Assembly (NCBI GenBank): GCA_030265395.1
Contig: JARFYF010000074.1
Location: 45,440,956-45,504,955, forward strand
Direction of reading: 5' to 3'
Source of the DNA: Rhina ancylostomus
Lineage: Eukaryota
DNA: 64,000 bases
In this document: positions 891-62,589 of the stretch, one piece after another
How the letters are laid out: every line of letters begins with the position of its first letter
Numbering within the stretch: position 1 is the first letter of the stretch
Translations under genes and position numbers: made by a program
Notes under the pieces: generated by a model
Databases searched by the model: none
What the model saw: the letters and a program-made list of their open reading frames with translations, nothing else
What the model was told of the DNA's origin: nothing

Positions 891-2488
891 GGCCCTCACT
901 TTTATCCTTATTTGACTTGAAGGATTTCTATTGATGCAGAGGCCCTGACATATCACAATATTACACAATGAAATAATGGGGAAACATCTGTTGCAGCTTG
1001 GTTACATAATAGCTAGAAGTATGGGAGTTACATTCTGTTCAATTTTGAATTATGAAATCTGTAAATTACTGACTTGGGGAATTACTATCAGAGATCCCTT
1101 TTACTGCAGTAGCCCACATATTCAAAATGAACACTGTATGTGCCAATAGCTTTTGTAGGAGATTCAAGTTTAAATGATCAGTGCAGACTCAGGGACAACT
1201 CAAGAGCTCAGACCATCAGTCCTGACCCCATGTATGGGGCCAGGACTGGAGGGGACATGTAAGGGGTGAGAAATGTTAAATCCTATATATACCAATGGGG
1301 AAGCAGCTACTGGGTTGTTCAAACCACTGTGCTCAGGAGGACAGTGGCGCTAAAGAGATTTAAACCCTGGAGACTGGCAAGTAAGGAAATTCAAATCCTG
1401 GGAACCAACAGCAACAAGTGTTGGTGATTCAAATGCAGCTATGGGTAGGGACATGTATAGCAGGGCTGATTCCACTTGCTGTGGGCAAATTCAGATCCTC
1501 TAGGCCATTCATCACAATTTGTATATTCAGATATAGAATATGTTTTGAACATATAAGACTGAAGTCACATTCTTTCCCATGTTTAATGATACAAGAAAAG
1601 AGGATTTGACACATTGAAGGCTAGTACTATTTGTAATTTGGCAATATCTCAGATCTTTTACAATGTAAGTGACTTGGATCTGTCAATAAATGCTAGTTTA
1701 TATATGTTTTACCATAACTAAACAGCTATTAATAAATTATTAAACATATCAGTGACTCAGTGCTCAGAACCAATTTCACGGTATACATTTCTGTCAAATA
1801 ACTGAATTAAGTGCAATGGTTGTAAGATTTCAAAGTCAACTATTAAAATGTAAGAACATCGTAGTTTACAAAATTGACAGGTAACATACACTTGTCAAAC
1901 AAGCCCCCCAAAATAGAACAAAGCTAAATAATCTTTGAAGCTTTTCAATTTTTATTTGAAATGGTTTGCATAAAGACCATAAAACAAACAGGGACACAAG
2001 GAATAGGAGGAGTGAGACAACCCATCACCCCTCATGCCTGCTTCGCCAGTCAATGAAATAGCAGCTTGTTCTCAATGTCACTTTCCTGCACTAACCCCAT
2101 ATCTTCTGGTGTTACTTAATTTATGCAAGTGTTAATTTTCCATGCATTACAGATATTTTAAAAGGTAAAATTATTTGTTTTAAAATCTAATTTGTTTTAA
2201 CAGATTTTATAAACAAAGGGCTGACAGATCCAAAATGCTCACAACTTAGTCACAAGAGGCCAATTGGTACAAGTCTAGTGTATAAGAAATTAATTNNNNN
2301 TGAATCAGCCCAGTTGTCTCTACAGTAAATGTAGAACTGGTTCAGTGAGCAGCTAGGGCACTGAAGAACTTTACATTATTTTAGTAATATATATAGTTTT
2401 TTTTAAATAAAAGAAAATACACTATTAAGAAATAAATAATAAAAACTCAATTTCTCCTATTCAACATAATACCCTTATCTCAAATTAC

Positions 2489-2544
2489 CTGCTATCTTCC
2501 TTGGTGAAGTAGAGAACGGGTTTTCGTCTGGACGAGTACATCAT
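2489..2544 (-). CDS. Putative first coding exon of an unidentified gene (MMYSSRRKPVLYFTKEDS…)
   Basis: gaaaATGATG with A at -3; 18 codons then AG|gtaatt donor; lies just downstream of the CpG-rich region. Peptide not recognised. Confidence 0.4.
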
Positions 2545-5692: not shown

Positions 5693-5932
5693 TTCTTTCA
5701 ATATTTTTATTAATTTCAAATAAGAAATACAAAATGCATGAGAGGGAAAAAAATTACAAAATAGAATATGTTGAATCACACTAGAAATCACAATGCTTCA
5801 CATTGATAAACACAAAAAAAAATCAATTGATATTGATAAAGGGGAATGATTTTATTTAAAAAAATCTAACCCCACTACCAAAACCAAAGCTGTTTAATAA
5901 CATCATAAAGACATAGTAGTATTGGCCAATAT
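5693..5932 (-). mobile_element. Probable L1/Tx1 LINE 3' tail next to a gap
   Basis: T-rich end (tttttattaatttcaa) and A-rich composition typical of L1 3' UTRs; no diagnostic protein motif visible. Confidence 0.4.
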
Positions 5933-6032
5933 NNNNNNNNNNNNNNNNNNNNNNNNNNNNNNNNNNNNNNNNNNNNNNNNNNNNNNNNNNNNNNNNNNNN
6001 NNNNNNNNNNNNNNNNNNNNNNNNNNNNNNNN

Positions 6033-6805
6033 CTTTGCACCTCCAATTTCTGAATTTGCTCCCTGTTTAGAAAATAGTCTGCGCCTTTATTCCTTCTACT
6101 GAAGTGCATGACTGTACACCTCCCTATGCTGTGTTCCATCTGCCACTTCTTTGCCCACTGTCCCAACCTATCCAAGTCCTTCTGCAGACTCCCTGCTTCA
6201 TCAACACTACCTGCCCTTCCACTTATCTTTGTATCATCTGTGAAATTGGCCACAAAGCTATCAATTCTGTCATCCAGATCATTAACGTATAACGTGAAAA
6301 GTAGCAGACCCAACACTGACCCCTGTGAAACACCACTAGTCACCAGCAGCCAACCAGAAATGGCCCCTTTATTCCCACTCTTTGCCTTCTGCCAGTCAGC
6401 CAGTCTTCTGTCCATGCTAATACCAGGGGCTCCTATCTTGTTTCTCAGCCTCATGTGCTGCACCTTGTCAAAGGCCTTCTGAAAATCCAAGTAAACAACA
6501 TCCACTGACTGTCTTTCTTGCCTGTTACTTCCTCAAAGAATTCCAACAGATTTGTCAGGGAAAATCTCCCCTTGAGGAAACCATGCTGACTTCGGCCAGT
6601 TTTATCATGTGCTTCCAAGTACCCTGAAACCTCATCCTTAATGATGGACTCTAAAATCTTACTAACCACTGAAATCAGGCTAACCGGCCTATAATTTCCT
6701 GTCTTTTTCCTCCCTCCTTTCTTAAAGATTGGAGTGACGTTAGCAATTTTGCAGTCCTTTGGAACCATTCCTGACTCTAGTGATTCTTGAAAGATTACTA
6801 CTAAT
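6033..6805 (-). mobile_element. CR1 LINE ORF2 reverse transcriptase fragment
   Basis: ORFs 6451-6768 and 5903-6505: ANVTPIFKKG…NYRPVSL, DVVYLDFQKAFDKV, SGVSQGSVLG, FTDDTKI. Confidence 0.92.
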
Positions 6806-7668
6806 GAGTCAGAGTACAGGAAGGAGATAGAGAGCTTAGCGACATGGTGTCATGACAACAACCTTTCCCTCAATGTCGGCAAATCAAAAAGAGCTAGACA
6901 TTGACTTCAGAAAGGGGGTGGTGTACATGCACCTGTCTACATCAATGATGCTGAGGTCGAGAGGGTTGAGAGCTTCAAGTTCCTGGGAGTGAACATCACC
7001 AATAGCCCGTCCTGGTCCAACAACATTGATGCCATGGCCAAGAAAGCTCACCAGTGCCTCTACTTCCTCAGGAGACTACAGAAATTTGCGTGTACCCTTT
7101 GACACTCACCAATTTTATCAATGCACCATAGAAAGCATCCTACTTGGATGCATGACGGCTTGGTATGGCAACTGCTCTGCCCAGGACCGCAAGAAACTGC
7201 AGAGAATTCTGGACACAGCTCAGTGCATCACGGAAACCAGCCTCCCCTCCATGGACTCTGTCTATACTTCTTGTTGCCTCAGTAAAGCAGCCAACATAAT
7301 CAAAGACCCCACCCACCCCAGATATTCTTTCTTCTCCTCTCTCCCATCGAACAGAAGATACAAAAGCCTGAAAGCACAAACCACCAGGCTCAAGGACAGC
7401 TTCTATCTCATTGTTATAAGACTATTGAACAGTTCCCTAGTACAATAAGATGGGCTCTTGACCTCACCATCTACCTCATTGTGACCTTGCACCTTATTGT
7501 CTACCTGAACTGCACTTTCTCTGTAGCTATTCACTTTATTCTGCATTCAGTAATTGTTTTACCTTGTACTACCCCAATACACTGTGTAATGAATTGATCC
7601 ATATGAATGGTATGCAAGACAAGTTTTTCAATAGTACAGGTGACAATAATAAACCAATTCCAATTCCA
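6806..7668 (+). mobile_element. Rex1/Babar-like LINE 3' part, 5'-truncated
   Basis: ESEYRKEIESLATWCHDNNLSLNV…ERVESFKFLGV…FYQCTIESIL.GCMTAWYGNC…DPTHP…TTRLKDSF; 3' tail with aataaa and (ccaatt)n. Confidence 0.85.
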
Positions 7669-14151: not shown

Positions 14152-14810
14152 CATAGATTTATGGAGTTATTCAGCACAGCAACAGGCCCTTCAGCCCAAC
14201 TTGTCCATGCCGAACAAGATGCCCAGCTAAGCTAGTCCGATTTGCCTGCATTTGGCCCATGTCCCTCTCAACCTTTCCTGTCCTTGTACCTGTCCAAGTG
14301 TTATTGTACTTGTCTCAACCACTTCCTTTGGCAGCCGGTTCTATATACACCTCTCTGTGTGAAGAAGTTGCTCTTCAGGTCCCTTTTAAATCTCTCCCAT
14401 CTCACCTTAAATCTATGTCCTCTGGTTTTTGATTCCCTTTCCCTTGGAAAAAGATTGTGTGCATTCACCCTATCTATGCCCCTTATGATTTTATACACCT
14501 CTATTAGGCCAACCTTCAAACTTCTACACTCCAATGAATAAGGTCCTAGCCTGTCCAACCTCTCCCTGTAACTCAGGCCCTCAAGTTCTGGCAACATTCT
14601 CGTAAATCTTCTTTGCGCTCTTTCCAACTTAATGGTGTCTTTCTTGTAACAGGATAACCAAAACTGTACACTGTACTCCAGCTGTGGCCTCACCAACATC
14701 TTGTACAACTGCAACCTAACATTCCATCTTCAAGACTCCATGCCCCAACTGATGAAGGCCAGCATGCCAAATGCCTTCTTCACCACCTTACCTCCCTATG
14801 TTGCCACCTG
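14152..14810 (-). mobile_element. CR1 LINE 3' end
   Basis: ORF 14301-14714: LYKMLVRPQLEYSVQFW…LERAQRRFTRMLPEL..LSY.ERL…TRGHRFK. Confidence 0.92.
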
Positions 14811-22390: not shown

Positions 22391-22713
22391 TTAAGTCGTC
22401 CGAGAGTTCACTACAAAGAAGACAACTACTGCAACAAATGCAATAGGCAAAATCAACGCAATCAACGCCATCCGTGATCGCCTGGATGTGAGATGATAGG
22501 ACACCACCATCTGACGGATGCCATTTTCATGGCAATAGCAGTCATAGTTGCCGAGTGCATTTCCTGTCACTAGGAGTCCTGAACTGTAGGAATCAATCGT
22601 AATGTTCTTGTTAGGAGTCAGCCACTCACAGTGGGCCTTTGAAGAAGAGGGCTTGCAATTGAGCATCACGTCTGAATGATGATCGATGACCAGAACAATT
22701 TCTTCTGCAGCTT
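22391..22713 (-). CDS. SEMA4F: Semaphorin-4F-like terminal coding exon: Ig domain, TM helix, 5-residue tail and stop
   Basis: Polypyrimidine tract then ttaag|AA GCT…; AAEEIVLVIDHHSDVMLNCKPSSSKAHCEWLTPNKNITIDSYSSGLLVTGNALGNYDCYCHENGIRQMVVSYHLTSRRSRMALIALILPIAFVAVVVFFVVNSRTT*. The C.PSS..A.C.W and G.Y.C.C.E.G patterns match SEMA4F as I recall it. Summed exons are 1901 nt with consistent phases. Confidence 0.9.
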
Positions 22714-23375
22714 CTTAAATGGAGGAAAGTATTAGCAAAGCAAATATCAAGATGAAAAAAAAGTTAACTTATTAAAAATAACATCAACTCTGACCAATTT
22801 AACTCTTAATTCACCAAAATTTAAGCAATCCCCAAATTACAAACCCCACCTTGGTTACAGGTGAAGAATCAGTCAGTAGAAAACGGGAAGAGCTGCAGTC
22901 AAGCTTACTTTCCCAGATCCAAAGTAATTACTGAAATATATACAGAAACAAATTCATGGAGATAAAATCTGTACATTTGTTGCATTGTACAAAAGGTAGG
23001 GCATGGCTTAAAATAAAAACTAGGGCCAAAAGAAATAACTGGCCAATAGCTTACCCCACTTCAAATCTTTCCCAACCTGATCCAAATTTACTGCTATGGC
23101 CCTTAATCTGCACCAATAGTGTCAATCTGTTGGATTTAGTTCAAACTTGAACTCAATATTAAAAGATATTTGAAGTTTTGGATATGACAGGATAATATGC
23201 AATTAATACTTGATGCAATTTCCCAGGATCATCCCATCTAGCTGGGTTGGAATTGGAACCCAGTTTCAAGGACAGATTTTTAATTTACTACAAATCCATT
23301 CCCCATCAACGTGACAGCTAATCCTTGTATCTGACTGGGTTGTTCAAAGAGGCTTTTCTTTTCCTCTCACTCCCA

Positions 23376-24350
23376 GAGGCTTTTCCCCAGGGCTGAAATG
23401 GTGGCGACAAGAGGACATAGGTTCAAGGTGCTGGGGAGTAGATACAGAGGAGATGTCCAGGGAAAGTTTTTTACTCAGAGAGTGGTGAGTGTATGGAATG
23501 GGCTGCCAGCAATGGTGGTGGAGGCAGATACAATAGGGTCTTTCAAGAGGTACATGGAGCTAAGTAAAATAGAGGGCTATGGGTAAGCATAGTAATTTCT
23601 AGGGTAGGGACATGTTCGGCACAGCTTTGTGGGCCAAAGGGCCTGAATTGTGCTGTAGGTTTCTATGTTCTATTTTCTATGTCCTCTGGCAGCTCATTCC
23701 ATATATGGACCAACCTCTGGGTGAAAAAGTTGCCCCTCACCATCCTACTAAACCTCCCTCTGCCTGTATTAATCTCCACCTGCTACTTCTCACCCCTTTT
23801 CACCAACAGGTCAATATCTCTGTGTGGCCTGTGCTCTGTTTCTACCGGGCTTTTCCCAGATGCCTTTCATGAAAATGGGGGCCTCATTTGCCATCCTCTA
23901 GTCATCTGATACTTGTGGCTAGCGAAGATTTATAAATCTCAGCCCCAGCAATCTCTTCCATTGCCTCCCATAACAGCCTAGGATAAATCTCATCGAGCTC
24001 TGGGGACTTATCCACCTTTAAGCCGACCAAGGCATAAGGCACCTCCTCTTTGATTACAGAGAACTGCACGAGAACTTCCCCTTCACTGAACGGACAACTA
24101 CAAAGTCCGTTTCCTTTGTGAATACCGATGAAATGCATTTAGGACTTCACCTCCACCTTCTGGCTCCATGCACAGAATGTCGCTGTTGGCCCTAATGGGC
24201 CCCACTCTTTCCCTGTTTATTCTTTTGCCCTTAATATATTCATAAAACAGATTCACCTTAATCCAATCCACCAGTGATATTTTATGACCCCTCTTTGCCT
24301 TATTCCTAATTTCCTTTCAGAGCAACACTTTTTTATACCCTTACTGGGCA
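23376..24350. mobile_element. Cluster of CR1 fragments (3' end on + at 23376-23680; ORF2 pieces on - to about 24350)
   Basis: TRGHRFKV…FFTQRVVSVWNGLP (ORF 23398-23586); LKVDKSPELDEIYPRLLWEA (ORF 23902-24138). Confidence 0.8.
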
Positions 24351-24363
24351 TTCCCCACCCTTA

Positions 24364-24607
24364 ATTTTTTTTTATTCACAGCGTGGTAACAGGCCCTTCT
24401 GGCCCAACGAGTCCACATCGCCCATTTTAAACCCCAAATTAACCTACCCGTATGTCTTTGGAATGTGGGAAGAAACCGGAGCACCCGGAGGAAACCCACG
24501 CAAACACGGGAGAACGTACAAACTCCTTACAGGCAACGGTAGGAATCAAACCCAGGTCGCTGGTGCCGTAATAGCCTCGTGCTAACCACTACGCTACCGT
24601 GCTGCCC
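24364..24607 (-). mobile_element. V-SINE (HE1-like), full length
   Basis: Reverse complement closely matches the 9591-9848 copy (A/B boxes, V domain, same tail). Confidence 0.88.
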
Positions 24608-25002: not shown

Positions 25003-25061
25003 CTGTCTGTGGTGGGCATAATCCTGCAGCATTGCCTTTCTTAATATCTTGTAAGAAGTCA
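25003..25061 (-). CDS. SEMA4F: Semaphorin-4F-like exon (59 nt)
   Basis: tgcag|T GAC…G|gtaata; DFLQDIKKGNAAGLCPPQT (QDI…LCP as in SEMA4F); phase 2->1. Confidence 0.9.
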
Positions 25062-27893: not shown

Positions 27894-28057
27894 TTGTTCA
27901 AAGAAGGTTTCTCATATAACTTGCATCGAGATGTTGCCTTACTCCAAACACAGTAGGGATCCCGGGCATAGATACAGTCATAACAGGTCTTGTATTGATC
28001 GCAATCTGCCACTGCAACCTGAGTAACTTCACTGGGAGAACCAACATAAATAAAGCC
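27894..28057 (-). CDS. SEMA4F: Semaphorin-4F-like exon (164 nt), PSI domain
   Basis: cccag|GGC…AA|gtatgt; GFIYVGSPSEVTQVAVADCDQYKTCYDCIYARDPYCVWSKATSRCKLYEKPSLN (C..C..ARDPYC.W); phase 0->2. Confidence 0.96.
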
Positions 28058-29230: not shown

Positions 29231-29340
29231 CTGATAGTGTAGGAGATTCTGTATGGGTTGAATATTTTTGAATAATTTCTTCTCCTCTATGATATGACTG
29301 CTAGAACCAACCAATACAGCTTTGTGTAATCGTCCATCAT
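29231..29340 (-). CDS. SEMA4F: Semaphorin-4F-like exon (110 nt), end of Sema domain
   Basis: tgcag|AT GAT…CAG|gtatga; DGRLHKAVLVGSSSHIIEEKKLFKNIQPIQNLLHYQ; phase 1->0. Confidence 0.95.
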
Positions 29341-32681: not shown

Positions 32682-32901
32682 TTGTTCCTAGGAAGAGAAC
32701 TTCGTAAGTTCCATCCATTGAGCTCACTTGCACTGCGACAATTTTGGAATACTGTGCATTCCTGGTCATCATCCTTGGCTGACCATCGAGTGGGTGGACA
32801 GCTTGCTGTACAAGAGGGTGACTTCGGCTGAAGCTCAGCACCTCATCAGGTAAAAGCAGTGAACTCTCAATGGAATGGTTCCTATGCCAGTTAGTGATGC
32901 A
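32682..32901 (-). CDS. SEMA4F: Semaphorin-4F-like exon (220 nt)
   Basis: tacag|TGC…A|gtaagt; CITNWHRNHSIESSLLLPDEVLSFSRSHPLVQQAVHPLDGQPRMMTRNAQYSKIVAVQVSSMDGTYEVLFLGT; phase 0->1. Confidence 0.95.
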
Positions 32902-35200: not shown

Positions 35201-35342
35201 CGAGCCAGGTCTTGGAAATGGAACTTGACCTTTATACTGAACAAAAGAAGAACAGTCGGGTTTGTATTCTTGATATGGTCCATCCAGGGCTGCATGGATG
35301 CTTTTGATGCTGTACATACAAACTGCAGACAGAGAATCACTC
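35201..35342 (-). CDS. SEMA4F: Semaphorin-4F-like exon (142 nt)
   Basis: tttag|G AGT…TCG|gtaagg; SDSLSAVCMYSIKSIHAALDGPYQEYKPDCSSFVQYKGQVPFPRPGS (SAVC and PRPG motifs; GPxxExKxDC as in SEMA4F); phase 2->0. Confidence 0.95.
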
Positions 35343-38460: not shown

Positions 38461-38642
38461 CACTGGGAGTTGAATACTGCGTAAAACACAGTACTGGTCC
38501 AATTACTAAGATCTCGCTGCAACATAAAGACATCCTGAATCACATCAAAGTAAAGCTTGCTGGATGGATCACTACAAACAAGTGTAGTCTTCTGGAAGCT
38601 TGACCACCGCCTCTGTAGAATCTTGAGCCCACCAACGTCACC
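38461..38642 (-). CDS. SEMA4F: Semaphorin-4F-like exon (182 nt)
   Basis: tgcag|GGT GAC…TG|gtaagt; GDVGGLKILQRRWSSFQKTTLVCSDPSSKLYFDVIQDVFMLQRDLSNWTSTVFYAVFNSQ(W); this frame is not in the ORF track; phase 0->2. Confidence 0.95.
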
Positions 38643-39586: not shown

Positions 39587-39738
39587 CTTGCAAATCCTGA
39601 CAACTCTGGAGACTCGTAGTTTGGTGTAGTAACTAAACTCCTTGCTGAGCTCACTGAAGAAAAAATATAGTTTGTCATCGTCGCCCACTTCACTTCTTAA
39701 ACTCTCCTTCACCAGAGCTGAGCCAATGAAAGTTGGTT
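39587..39738 (-). CDS. SEMA4F: Semaphorin-4F-like exon (152 nt)
   Basis: tacag|AA CCA…AAG|gtaatc; (E)PTFIGSALVKESLRSEVGDDDKLYFFFSELSKEFSYYTKLRVSRVVRICK (GDDDK.YFFF.E motif); phase 1->0. Confidence 0.95.
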
Positions 39739-43694: not shown

Positions 43695-43814
43695 CCTTCA
43701 GCCAGGAATCCAATGCCTCCGTTGTGATCCGCTGGTTAAAAGGACCCATTGCTCTGGTAATAAGGAACTGAGTCCCTTGGAGATCAGAAGCTGTTGCAGC
43801 ATACAGGACTCCAT
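43695..43814 (-). CDS. SEMA4F: Semaphorin-4F-like exon (120 nt)
   Basis: accag|AT GGA…G|gtgagt; (D)GVLYAATASDLQGTQFLITRAMGPFNQRITTEALDSWLK; phase 1->1. Confidence 0.95.
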
Positions 43815-43989: not shown

Positions 43990-45715
43990 AATAGAGTCAT
44001 ACAGCACAAAAACAGACCTGTTGGCCCAACTGGTCCATGCTGACCAATATGGCCCATCCAAGCCAGTCCCATTTCCTTGCACTTGGCCCATAACCTTCTA
44101 AACCTTTCCAGTCCAAGTACCTGTCCAACTGTTTTAAAAGTTGTTATTGTATCTGCCTCAACCATTTCCTCTGGCAGCTGATACCACCCCTTGTATATAA
44201 AAAAAAAGTTGCCCCTCGAGTTCCTCTTAAATCATTCCCCTCTCACCTTAAACCTATGCCCTCTAGTTCTTGATACCCCAACTCTGGGTAAAAGACTGAG
44301 TGCATTCAATTCCCTATCAATGCCCCTCATGATTTTTATACACCTCTGAGATCACCTCTCAATCTCCTATGCTCTAAGGAATAAACTCCTAGCCTGTCCA
44401 ACCTCTCACTACAACTCAGTCCCTCAAGTCCTGCAGTATCCTTGTAAATCTTTTCTGCACTCTTTCCTATAGCAGGGTGTCCAAAACTGAACACAATAAT
44501 CCAAGTGAAGCCTCACTAATGTCCTGTACAACTGCATCATGACCTCCCAACTTTTATACTGAATGCCCTGACTGATGAAGGCCAACATGCCAAAAGCCAC
44601 CTTCTCCATCCTGTCTCCCTGTGACTCCATTTTCAGTGAACCATGTACTTATACTTCAAGGTGTCTCTATTCTACAACATTCCCCAGAGCCCTACTGTTC
44701 ACTGTGAAAGTCCGACCCAGATTTGACTTTCCAAAATGGAACACCTTGCACTTATCTGAATTAAACTCTATTTGCCATCCCTGAGCCCATTTACTCAGCT
44801 GATCAAGATCCCCCTGTAATTTTTGGTAACCTTCTTCATTGTCCACTATACCACCTATATTAGTATCATCTGCAAACTTACTAACCATGCCTTATACATT
44901 CTTATCCAAATTGTTGACATAGGTGACAAACAAAGGGCCCAGCACGGACCCCTNNNNNNNNNNNNNNNNNNNNNNNNNNNNNNNNNNNNNNNNNNNNNNN
45001 NNNNNNNNNNNNNNNNNNNNNNNNNNNNNNNNNNNNNNNNNNNNNNNNNNNNNTGGTAACCTTCTTCATTGTCCACTATACCACCTATTTCATAGTCATT
45101 TGCAAACTTACTAACCCTGCCTTGTACATTCTTATCCAAATCGTTGATATGAATGACAAACAACAATGGGCCCAGCACTGATCCCTGAGGCACACCACTA
45201 GTCACTGGCCTCCAGTCTGAGAAACAACCTTCCACCATCACCCTCAGCTTTCTACCATCAAGCCAATTGTGTATCCAATTAGCTTGTTTCCCTGGATTCC
45301 ATGCGATCTAACCCTCCGTGGCAGCCTGCCATGAGGGACCTTATCAAAGGCCTTACTGAAGTCCATATAAACCTTGTCTACCACCCTGCCCTCATCAACT
45401 TTTTTGGTCACCTCACTAAAAACTCAGTCAAGTTCGTAAGACATGATTTCCTATGCACAAAGCCATGCTGACCACCCCTAATCAAACTCCATCTTTCCAG
45501 ATGTACGTATATCATCACTCAGAATCCTCTCAGTAACTTACCTACAGCAGACGTTAGACTTACTGGCCTATAGTTCCCAGGCTTTTCTTTGCCACCCTTC
45601 TTAAATAAAGACACAGCATTCACTACCCTCCAGTCTACAAGCACCTCACCCGTGGCTAACAATAATGCAAATATCTCAGCCGGAGCTCCCCTAATTTTTT
45701 ATCTAGCCTCCCACA
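43990..45715 (-). mobile_element. CR1 LINE ORF2 (RT) and 3' end, broken by a gap
   Basis: FSDWRPVTSGVPQGSVLGPLLFVI.INDLD, SKFADDT, LYRTLVRLHLDYCVQFW; typical CR1 3' tail near 43990. Confidence 0.92.
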
Positions 45716-46650: not shown

Positions 46651-46762
46651 CCGCTACCACAGTGGTGTGTTGCAAAGCAGGGTCATACGGACACCGAGCC
46701 TTGCCACTCTCCATTGATATCTCCCCATTCTCATCTTTCACCAGCTCGAAGTTGGAGACCTC
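46651..46762 (-). CDS. SEMA4F: Semaphorin-4F-like exon (112 nt)
   Basis: ttcag|GAG…G|gtaatc; EVSNFELVKDENGEISMESGKARCPYDPALQHTTVVA (ESG..RCPYDP motif); phase 0->1. Confidence 0.95.
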
Positions 46763-49819: not shown

Positions 49820-49918
49820 AATGTAGGTGCACTGCGGATTAAAGGCGAATGTTCCGCACATGAAAATGTGTGTGTCGTTGAGGTACTGCAGAACACGGAT
49901 GAAATTGTTGCATTCTTC
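49820..49918 (-). CDS. SEMA4F: Semaphorin-4F-like exon (99 nt)
   Basis: tgcag|GAA…ATT|gtaaga; [33 protein letters not shown], the classic CGTxAFxP.C motif; phase 0->0. Confidence 0.95.
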
Positions 49919-52613: not shown

Positions 52614-52673
52614 CCTTGTCTTGCCGATTGCAGTGCAGTCCACCCTTTCCTTTTCTGAAACTTCCCACGTGAT
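52614..52673 (-). CDS. SEMA4F: Semaphorin-4F-like exon (60 nt)
   Basis: gacag|ATC…AGG|gtatgt; ITWEVSEKERVDCTAIGKTR (W…C..GK motif); phase 0->0. Confidence 0.88.
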
Positions 52674-62431: not shown

Positions 62432-62589
62432 CGCTGCCTTAACCTCTTGAGTCACTCTGGTAAGACTGAGTGCAAACAAGGTGCCCCTGGCTCCCACGTA
62501 CAGAGTGTTCTCCCTCTTTCCCAGCAAGAATGTCCTGTAGTCAGACACACCCTTTTGGGAGAAGCGCTGGACAATGGGTGCATGGAGAT
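62432..62589 (-). CDS. SEMA4F: Semaphorin-4F-like, first visible coding exon (equivalent to exon 2), start of Sema domain
   Basis: tgcag|AT CTC CAT…GCG|gtgagt; translates LHAPIVQRFSQKGVSDYRTFLLGKRENTLYVGARGTLFALSLTRVTQEVKAA, containing the semaphorin LYVGAR motif; phase 1->0. Confidence 0.9.

Follow-up and report, generated by a model that had tools for sequence, protein, structure and literature searches.

A class 4-type semaphorin of sharks and rays with a C-terminal tail of five residues

Introduction

According to PMC5223600, all class 4 semaphorins have cytoplasmic tails, which are 57-149 residues long; in 4B, 4C, 4F and 4G the tail interacts with partners inside the cell, and reverse signalling is lost in Sema4A deprived of its tail. 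For SEMA4F, PMC8201269 reports recruitment by PSD95. Here we describe a gene of Rhina ancylostomus whose product departs from this pattern, in that 5 residues are found in 12 of 12 species where PMC5223600 gives the class a cytoplasmic domain of 57-149. A literature search by title and beginning of the abstract, with subscription journals mostly outside its coverage, returned no description of this tail-less gene.

With SEMA4F the tail-less protein has in common the order sema-PSI-Ig-TM, a short Ig domain matching Sema4F_C, the encoding of Ig and TM in one last exon, and a DOK gene upstream. It differs from SEMA4F, whose tail comprises 78-95 residues ending E[TS]SI, in its tail of 5 residues, a stalk about 8-15 residues shorter, a sequence identity of only about 40% and its location on a different contig; moreover, the tail-less form was found only in cartilaginous fishes, unlike the SEMA4F of jawed vertebrates. 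SEMA4D is the best sequence match (E 3e-126) with the same domain order, and its structures 1OLZ and 3OL2 are the best fold matches for an AlphaFold2 model of the Pristis ortholog (TM 0.83 and 0.82, respectively), but the tail-less protein has neither the long stalk nor the cytoplasmic domain of SEMA4D and class 4. SEMA7A is similar in total length and likewise passes from the Ig domain almost immediately into a C-terminal hydrophobic stretch; it is distant in the tree (PDB match with E 8e-46), shares no omega site with the tail-less protein and lacks its basic tail. A possible functional parallel is Drosophila Sema1b, a membrane semaphorin that modulates plexin according to PMC7327498, although it is of a different class, without Ig domain and monomeric, a state that is not indicated for the tail-less protein.

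Gene structure and protein

The window, i.e. the whole analysed stretch of 64,000 nucleotides on contig C74, carries the tail-less gene on its minus strand. The gene is intact, with 14 coding exons joined by GT-AG introns and a product of 672 aa, and its exon boundaries were set by GT-AG fit against the ortholog of Pristis pectinata, with whose protein 646 of the 672 residues are identical. A signal peptide, called by eye from the sequence, is followed by the sema, PSI and Ig domains, 21 hydrophobic residues, NSRTT and the stop. The original prediction had all 13 exons intact; this is true of the 13 coding exons in the window, but the gene has 14, because the signal-peptide exon lies outside, about 5 kb past the right end. 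The features, in window coordinates, are as follows.

69263-69146 (window-relative, outside the window), minus strand: coding exon 1, signal peptide
62432..62589, minus strand: coding exon 2, start of the sema domain
52614..52673, minus strand: coding exon 3, sema
49820..49918, minus strand: coding exon 4, sema
46651..46762, minus strand: coding exon 5, sema
43695..43814, minus strand: coding exon 6, sema
39587..39738, minus strand: coding exon 7, sema
38461..38642, minus strand: coding exon 8, sema (weak PF01403 match, under the cut-off)
35201..35342, minus strand: coding exon 9, sema
32682..32901, minus strand: coding exon 10, sema (PF01403, E 1.5e-20)
29231..29340, minus strand: coding exon 11, end of sema
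27894..28057, minus strand: coding exon 12, PSI domain (PF01437, E 3.2e-9)
25003..25061, minus strand: coding exon 13, end of PSI
22391..22713, minus strand: last coding exon, with Ig domain, basic juxtamembrane motif, hydrophobic helix, 5-residue tail and TAA
22472..22486, minus strand: S-R-R-S-R immediately after Ig strand G
22409..22471, minus strand: predicted transmembrane helix, residues 647-667
22394..22408, minus strand: C-terminal tail NSRTT, residues 668-672
22393-22391, minus strand: stop codon TAA
21367..22390, minus strand: 3' UTR, about 1 kb, carried by spliced contigs

The Pfam domains of the gene are PF01403, PF01437 and PF19428; the match of the last-exon Ig domain to PF19428 (Sema4F_C) covers profile positions 6-73 of 197 only. 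An ESM Atlas search with the last exon gave generic Ig-TM clusters only, below 0.9. The predicted helix has an invariant Pro655 and zero charged residues, and in the five-residue tail, which holds no PDZ-binding motif, Arg670 is invariant. A candidate poly(A) signal, ATTAAA, is found at 21373-21368. Some models contain an N-terminal cytoplasmic extension that could replace the tail; we rejected this for Rhina, where an in-frame stop stands 12 codons before the ATG.

The early stop

The last exon (22713-22391) bears out the predicted frame that ends in NSRTT-TAA, five residues past the hydrophobic helix. As had also been noted from the sequence, a convincing splice donor is missing between helix and stop. 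GT occurs there 8 times, at 22467-22412, with scores of -3.0 to -11.2, while the 13 real donors of the gene reach 1.3 to 6.0 in the same scoring, whose frequencies are approximate. A cryptic donor with a score of 2.0 is located in the last exon at 22630. A frameshift would not bring back a long tail: from 22480 onwards the other two frames are closed by stop codons after 5 and 42 codons, and over the following 1.1 kb no frame is open beyond 69 codons. A DNA contig spans 22305-23402 with zero mismatches or gaps; note that it is not independent evidence, because run X6, from which it comes, may be the assembly's own source.

Contigs in both of two further runs join the last four exons and pass the stop unbroken to 21485 and 21367. 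These are one contig per run, from one related species and one study. None of the runs listed is registered as RNA, and the RNA nature of these two is the tool's guess; three introns, each with CT..AC ends, are nevertheless spliced out of the contigs, and the indels listed on them fall within the UTR. Other runs (X3, X5) aligned as fragments only. No SEMA4F-type tail was detected within 264 kb of the gene (best E 0.15), in a search whose control at the SEMA4F locus recovered 5 shark tails with E 1e-17 to 1e-55, three bony-vertebrate tails missing the control as well. On the strength of DNA contig, spliced contigs, frame and tail searches we rejected an indel or a downstream tail exon.

Conservation in cartilaginous fishes

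Among the matches listed, 14 other cartilaginous fish species have an ortholog, and none of their models has a long tail. In 11 of them (Pristis, two Mobula, Hemitrygon, Hypanus, Narcine, Heptranchias, Heterodontus, Mustelus and two Scyliorhinus) the model ends at the same place. The prediction of an intact class 4-type semaphorin almost without a tail stands; the gene is real and conserved, with the same end in 12/12 species. From the Ig F-strand Cys to the C-terminus there are exactly 48 residues in all 12, as compared to 130-146 in 9 SEMA4F proteins and 42-45 in three SEMA7A. Within the tail-less clade, 276 of 466 positions in the sema domain (59%) and 33 of 57 in PSI are invariant, as are 20 of 21 cysteines; judged from these alignments, the ectodomain is under strong constraint.

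The helix is missing from the models of Cetorhinus and Carcharodon, which have another last exon, and of Callorhinchus, which is fused to B4GALT7. For skates, carpet sharks and Pristiophorus no tail-less ortholog was among the matches listed, though their SEMA4F or DOK appeared. Because of the helix-less models and these unlisted orthologs, some lineages may be able to do without the gene or its end. In the Cetorhinus and Carcharodon models, splicing out of the last exon occurs where Rhina has the cryptic donor at 22630, and the final exon is another one, of 31 residues with a hydrophobic end. Either the anchor may differ in lamniform sharks, or the models may be read-through. The best match to that exon in 264 kb of Rhina sequence, at 4865-4778 on the minus strand and 2.3 kb ahead of exon 1 of B4GALT7, is interrupted by an in-frame stop and lacks an AG acceptor. 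In the RefSeq entries of Callorhinchus milii (P0019, P0281, P0282, P0287) the sema-PSI part is fused to B4GALT7, likely by read-through or model error.

Outside cartilaginous fishes the best matches are SEMA4F, with 42-44% identity (best 120 of 242, with 7994 candidates scored), and no bony-vertebrate copy of the tail-less gene was found in the protein collections. A search of cluster representatives (best 150 of 2537) placed one representative in the tail-less clade; relatives more than 50% identical would be hidden behind it. Among 267 proteins surveyed, 19 have a hydrophobic stretch close to their C-terminus. Of these, 13 belong to the tail-less clade and one is a SEMA7A; the remaining five are single representatives without a name. 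These five (P0150, P0153, P0199, P0220, P0227) may result from truncated models or may have short tails of independent origin; P0153, with 16 residues past the hydrophobic stretch, falls in the SEMA4F clade of ray-finned fish.

Relation to SEMA4F

The gene had been described as SEMA4F-like, and SEMA4F is indeed its closest relative; it is not SEMA4F itself, as the tail-less gene forms its own clade and a separate, tailed SEMA4F ortholog exists. In Rhina the latter lies at 4.53-4.57 Mb of contig C52 and has a tail of about 90 residues ending CQDETSI. The DETSI/ESSI PDZ-binding motif is present in this gene and absent from the tail-less one, and both occur together in the same shark and ray genomes. 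Phylogenetic analysis was carried out with FastTree on 152 proteins (41 named and 113 of 147 new cluster representatives, the 113 being those of 560-1000 aa; 2 gappy ones removed) and with IQ-TREE on 38 chosen rows under LG+G4, w/o mixture model. As evidenced by the IQ-TREE analysis, the tail-less clade, including Callorhinchus (100/100), and the SEMA4F of sharks and bony vertebrates (100/99) are joined with 100/100, and the FastTree topology agrees. In these protein trees the tail-less clade is thus sister to all jawed-vertebrate SEMA4F. A duplication in sharks only, which would group the gene with shark SEMA4F, was rejected (AU p=0.008, LG+G4), and the trees rule out an identity as SEMA4F, 4B or 4C. 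RefSeq labels the tail-less orthologs 'semaphorin-4B/4C-like' and hence mislabels them.

The position within the class 4 clade, as sister of SEMA4F, makes the gene class 4 by descent, and it is a variant in architecture. The trees give no common descent with the class 7 SEMA7A, of which sharks and rays have their own. A lamprey relative, P0131, falls outside the pair of tail-less gene and SEMA4F and has a long tail ending ETSI, and the tail is therefore ancestral and was lost rather than gained.

Neighbourhood and origin

The minus strand of C74 carries, in this order, a DOK3-like gene, whose stop is about 11 kb before the ATG, the tail-less gene and B4GALT7, the remainder of which is found in pieces L009-L010.

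2488..2544, minus strand: coding exon 1 of B4GALT7, the downstream neighbour (19/19 residues identical to Callorhinchus)
L020:6544-7617, at 45.52-45.53 Mb of C74, minus strand: DOK3-like gene

B4GALT7 is also beside the tail-less gene in Heterodontus, Mustelus, Cetorhinus, Narcine and S. torazame, as indicated by near-consecutive RefSeq accessions. Of 15 matches to the C74 DOK gene among its orthologs, 5 bear the name docking protein 3(-like) and 3 another DOK name, with 7 unnamed. Its last exon is fast-evolving and has matches only in cartilaginous fish. On C52, SEMA4F is preceded at a distance of about 200 kb by a DOK gene of the same orientation that best matches DOK1; such adjacency to DOK1, a feature of SEMA4F orthologs, is not found for the tail-less gene. 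In human, DOK1 and SEMA4F at 2p13 and DOK3 and B4GALT7 at 5q35 represent two paralogous blocks.

The pair of DOK3-like and tail-less gene mirrors that of DOK1-like gene and SEMA4F, which suggests a paralog from whole-genome duplication. Note that only one paralogous pair, DOK1/DOK3, flanks both loci. A hexokinase-family exon, perhaps HK3, is found at 45106895-45107059 of C74, about 340 kb left of the window, with none on C52; there was no TMED match on C74 and no lysyl oxidase match on C52 or C74. Based on the tree, the one flanking pair and the human map, we consider a whole-genome-duplication origin likely. The tail-less gene would then likely stem from duplication of a DOK-SEMA4F block in the jawed-vertebrate genome duplication, would have been shortened by the tail and about 8-15 residues of the stalk prior to the divergence of sharks and rays, and would, as its absence from the protein collections suggests, likely have been lost in bony vertebrates.

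Proposed function

The tail-less protein is likely a membrane-fixed, forward-only class 4-type ligand, a reading to which we assign a probability of roughly 0.55. Its ectodomain would be exported by way of the signal peptide, transfer would halt at the helix, and R670 and K671 would lie inside the cell. As the end comes five residues after the predicted helix, the protein likely signals only outward, and the lack of a tail would preclude PSD-95-type PDZ binding and reverse signalling of its own. The binding partner would likely be a B-type plexin on neighbouring cells; both receptor and dimer state are assumed from class 4 relatives. Since the tail-less protein would be unable to fulfil the PDZ and reverse roles, tailed SEMA4F would keep them. 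Labour would thus have been split after duplication, with PDZ anchoring kept by SEMA4F and the tail-less gene turned into a forward-only surface ligand.

The tail-less gene is a natural counterpart of a delta-C mutant, kept across sharks and rays, and shows that a class 4 ectodomain can stay under selection without a signalling tail. The two paralogs, tailed and tail-less, provide a paired test system for SEMA4F, the receptor of which is, to our knowledge, unsettled. The tail-less gene also adds a likely genome-duplication paralog, seemingly lost in bony vertebrates, to the family; the reach of this is limited to cartilaginous fish, and the functional role is a predicted one.

More tentatively, the gene may stand for an undescribed jawed-vertebrate subfamily, the duplication twin of SEMA4F, lost in bony vertebrates, in which the protein has another kind of anchor (GPI or programmed release at the conserved S-R-x-S-R) or acts as a dedicated antagonist of SEMA4F/plexin signalling; such an architecture would fall outside the standard classes. 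It is unlikely that the tail-less subunit serves as a decoy or damper, whether by binding plexin in cis or by pairing with SEMA4F so as to dilute its PDZ binding and reverse signalling. The missing tail and almost missing stalk would suit such a role, as would the coexistence with SEMA4F in the same genomes, but the aromatic loop, which we take to form the dimer contact of SEMA4D, closely resembles that of SEMA4F (F-x-Y-Y pattern) and points to a dimer. Monomeric Sema1b and Sema6A do inhibit plexins in cis and offer an analogy, yet this inhibition depends on the monomer, according to PMC7327498.

Membrane anchor

The AlphaFold2 model of the Pristis protein has a pLDDT of 89.5 and shows a helix of residues 643-671 that comes straight after Ig strand G (631-642). 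The best 19-residue hydropathy is 2.78-3.42 in the tail-less proteins, 2.29-2.67 in SEMA4F helices and 1.44-2.66 in the GPI signals of three SEMA7A, and past the hydrophobic stretch there are 1-2 basic residues in tail-less orthologs versus 0 in SEMA7A. Basic residues are usually on the cytosolic side of a helix (the positive-inside rule); here three precede it and only 1-2 follow, the opposite of that bias. S642, R644, S645 and R646 are invariant in 12/12 species, and the S-R-x-S-R motif may seat the helix in the outer head groups. The best reading of sequence and model is that the C-terminus fits a transmembrane helix better than a GPI signal, because it is more hydrophobic, has a conserved basic tail and shows no shared omega site.

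The original prediction had offered RRSR as a shedding site. An RxxR is present before the helix in 12/12 species, but the canonical R-X-R-R occurs in 4/5 sharks and 0/7 rays, and a furin site is for this reason possible but weak. That the protein is a precursor, cut by a proprotein convertase at the R-rich motif to free the ectodomain as a soluble cue, is accordingly quite doubtful. The conservation of the linker, with 4/7 positions invariant versus 4/18 in the helix, and the cleavage to which class 4 ectodomains are open (PMC5223600) would agree with such a fate. In the other register, found in 11/12, however, M, V, A, I or T follows at the helix start, which does not suit furin preferences, and in the model the helix begins with the R-rich residues, leaving no stalk exposed.

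A GPI-addition signal, the other suggestion made from the sequence, is disfavoured. It would combine the ectodomain of class 4 with an anchor like that of class 7, which we regard as improbable, despite an Ig-Cys-to-end distance of 48 residues close to the 42-45 of three SEMA7A. The missing linker cannot separate TM from GPI, because SEMA7A has a similar spacing and its candidate omega site likewise comes right after strand G. Efficient GPI signals are said to be only marginally hydrophobic; the stretch found here exceeds the SEMA7A signals in hydrophobicity and ends in conserved basic residues. The position aligned to the SEMA7A candidate omega is Arg in 11/12 tail-less orthologs. A scan for omega sites (small residue, +1 not Pro, +2 A/G/S, a pattern taken from PMC10491789) gave a well-spaced site in 3/3 SEMA7A but none in 7 rays, and in 5 sharks only sites inside Ig strand G or abutting the hydrophobic stretch. 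The same source states that GPI signals have no strict consensus, which leaves some room for a GPI anchor, but its spacer of 8-12 residues is not fitted by the tail-less C-terminus.

That the short end is an assembly error, a pseudogene or a minor isoform of a gene whose main product gains a long tail from a downstream exon is scarcely credible: some RefSeq isoforms do terminate differently (Cetorhinus, Carcharodon, Narcine X2/X3, Mobula X2, Heterodontus X4) and the cryptic donor at 22630 scores 2.0, but the alternative ends are never a tailed TM form, the end is identical in 11 other species, spliced contigs pass through the stop and no tail was found within 264 kb.

Other loci

Another class 4-type last exon, in this case tailed, is located at 6.69 Mb of contig C73 (L003), and a second sema-domain gene lies about 45 kb from it on the opposite strand. 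Within the window, decayed repeat fragments, which we take to be LINE- and SINE-like and which have very high read depth where reads were aligned, are found at 5900-6850, 14300-14730, 23335-23740, 24370-24600 and 44000-44900.
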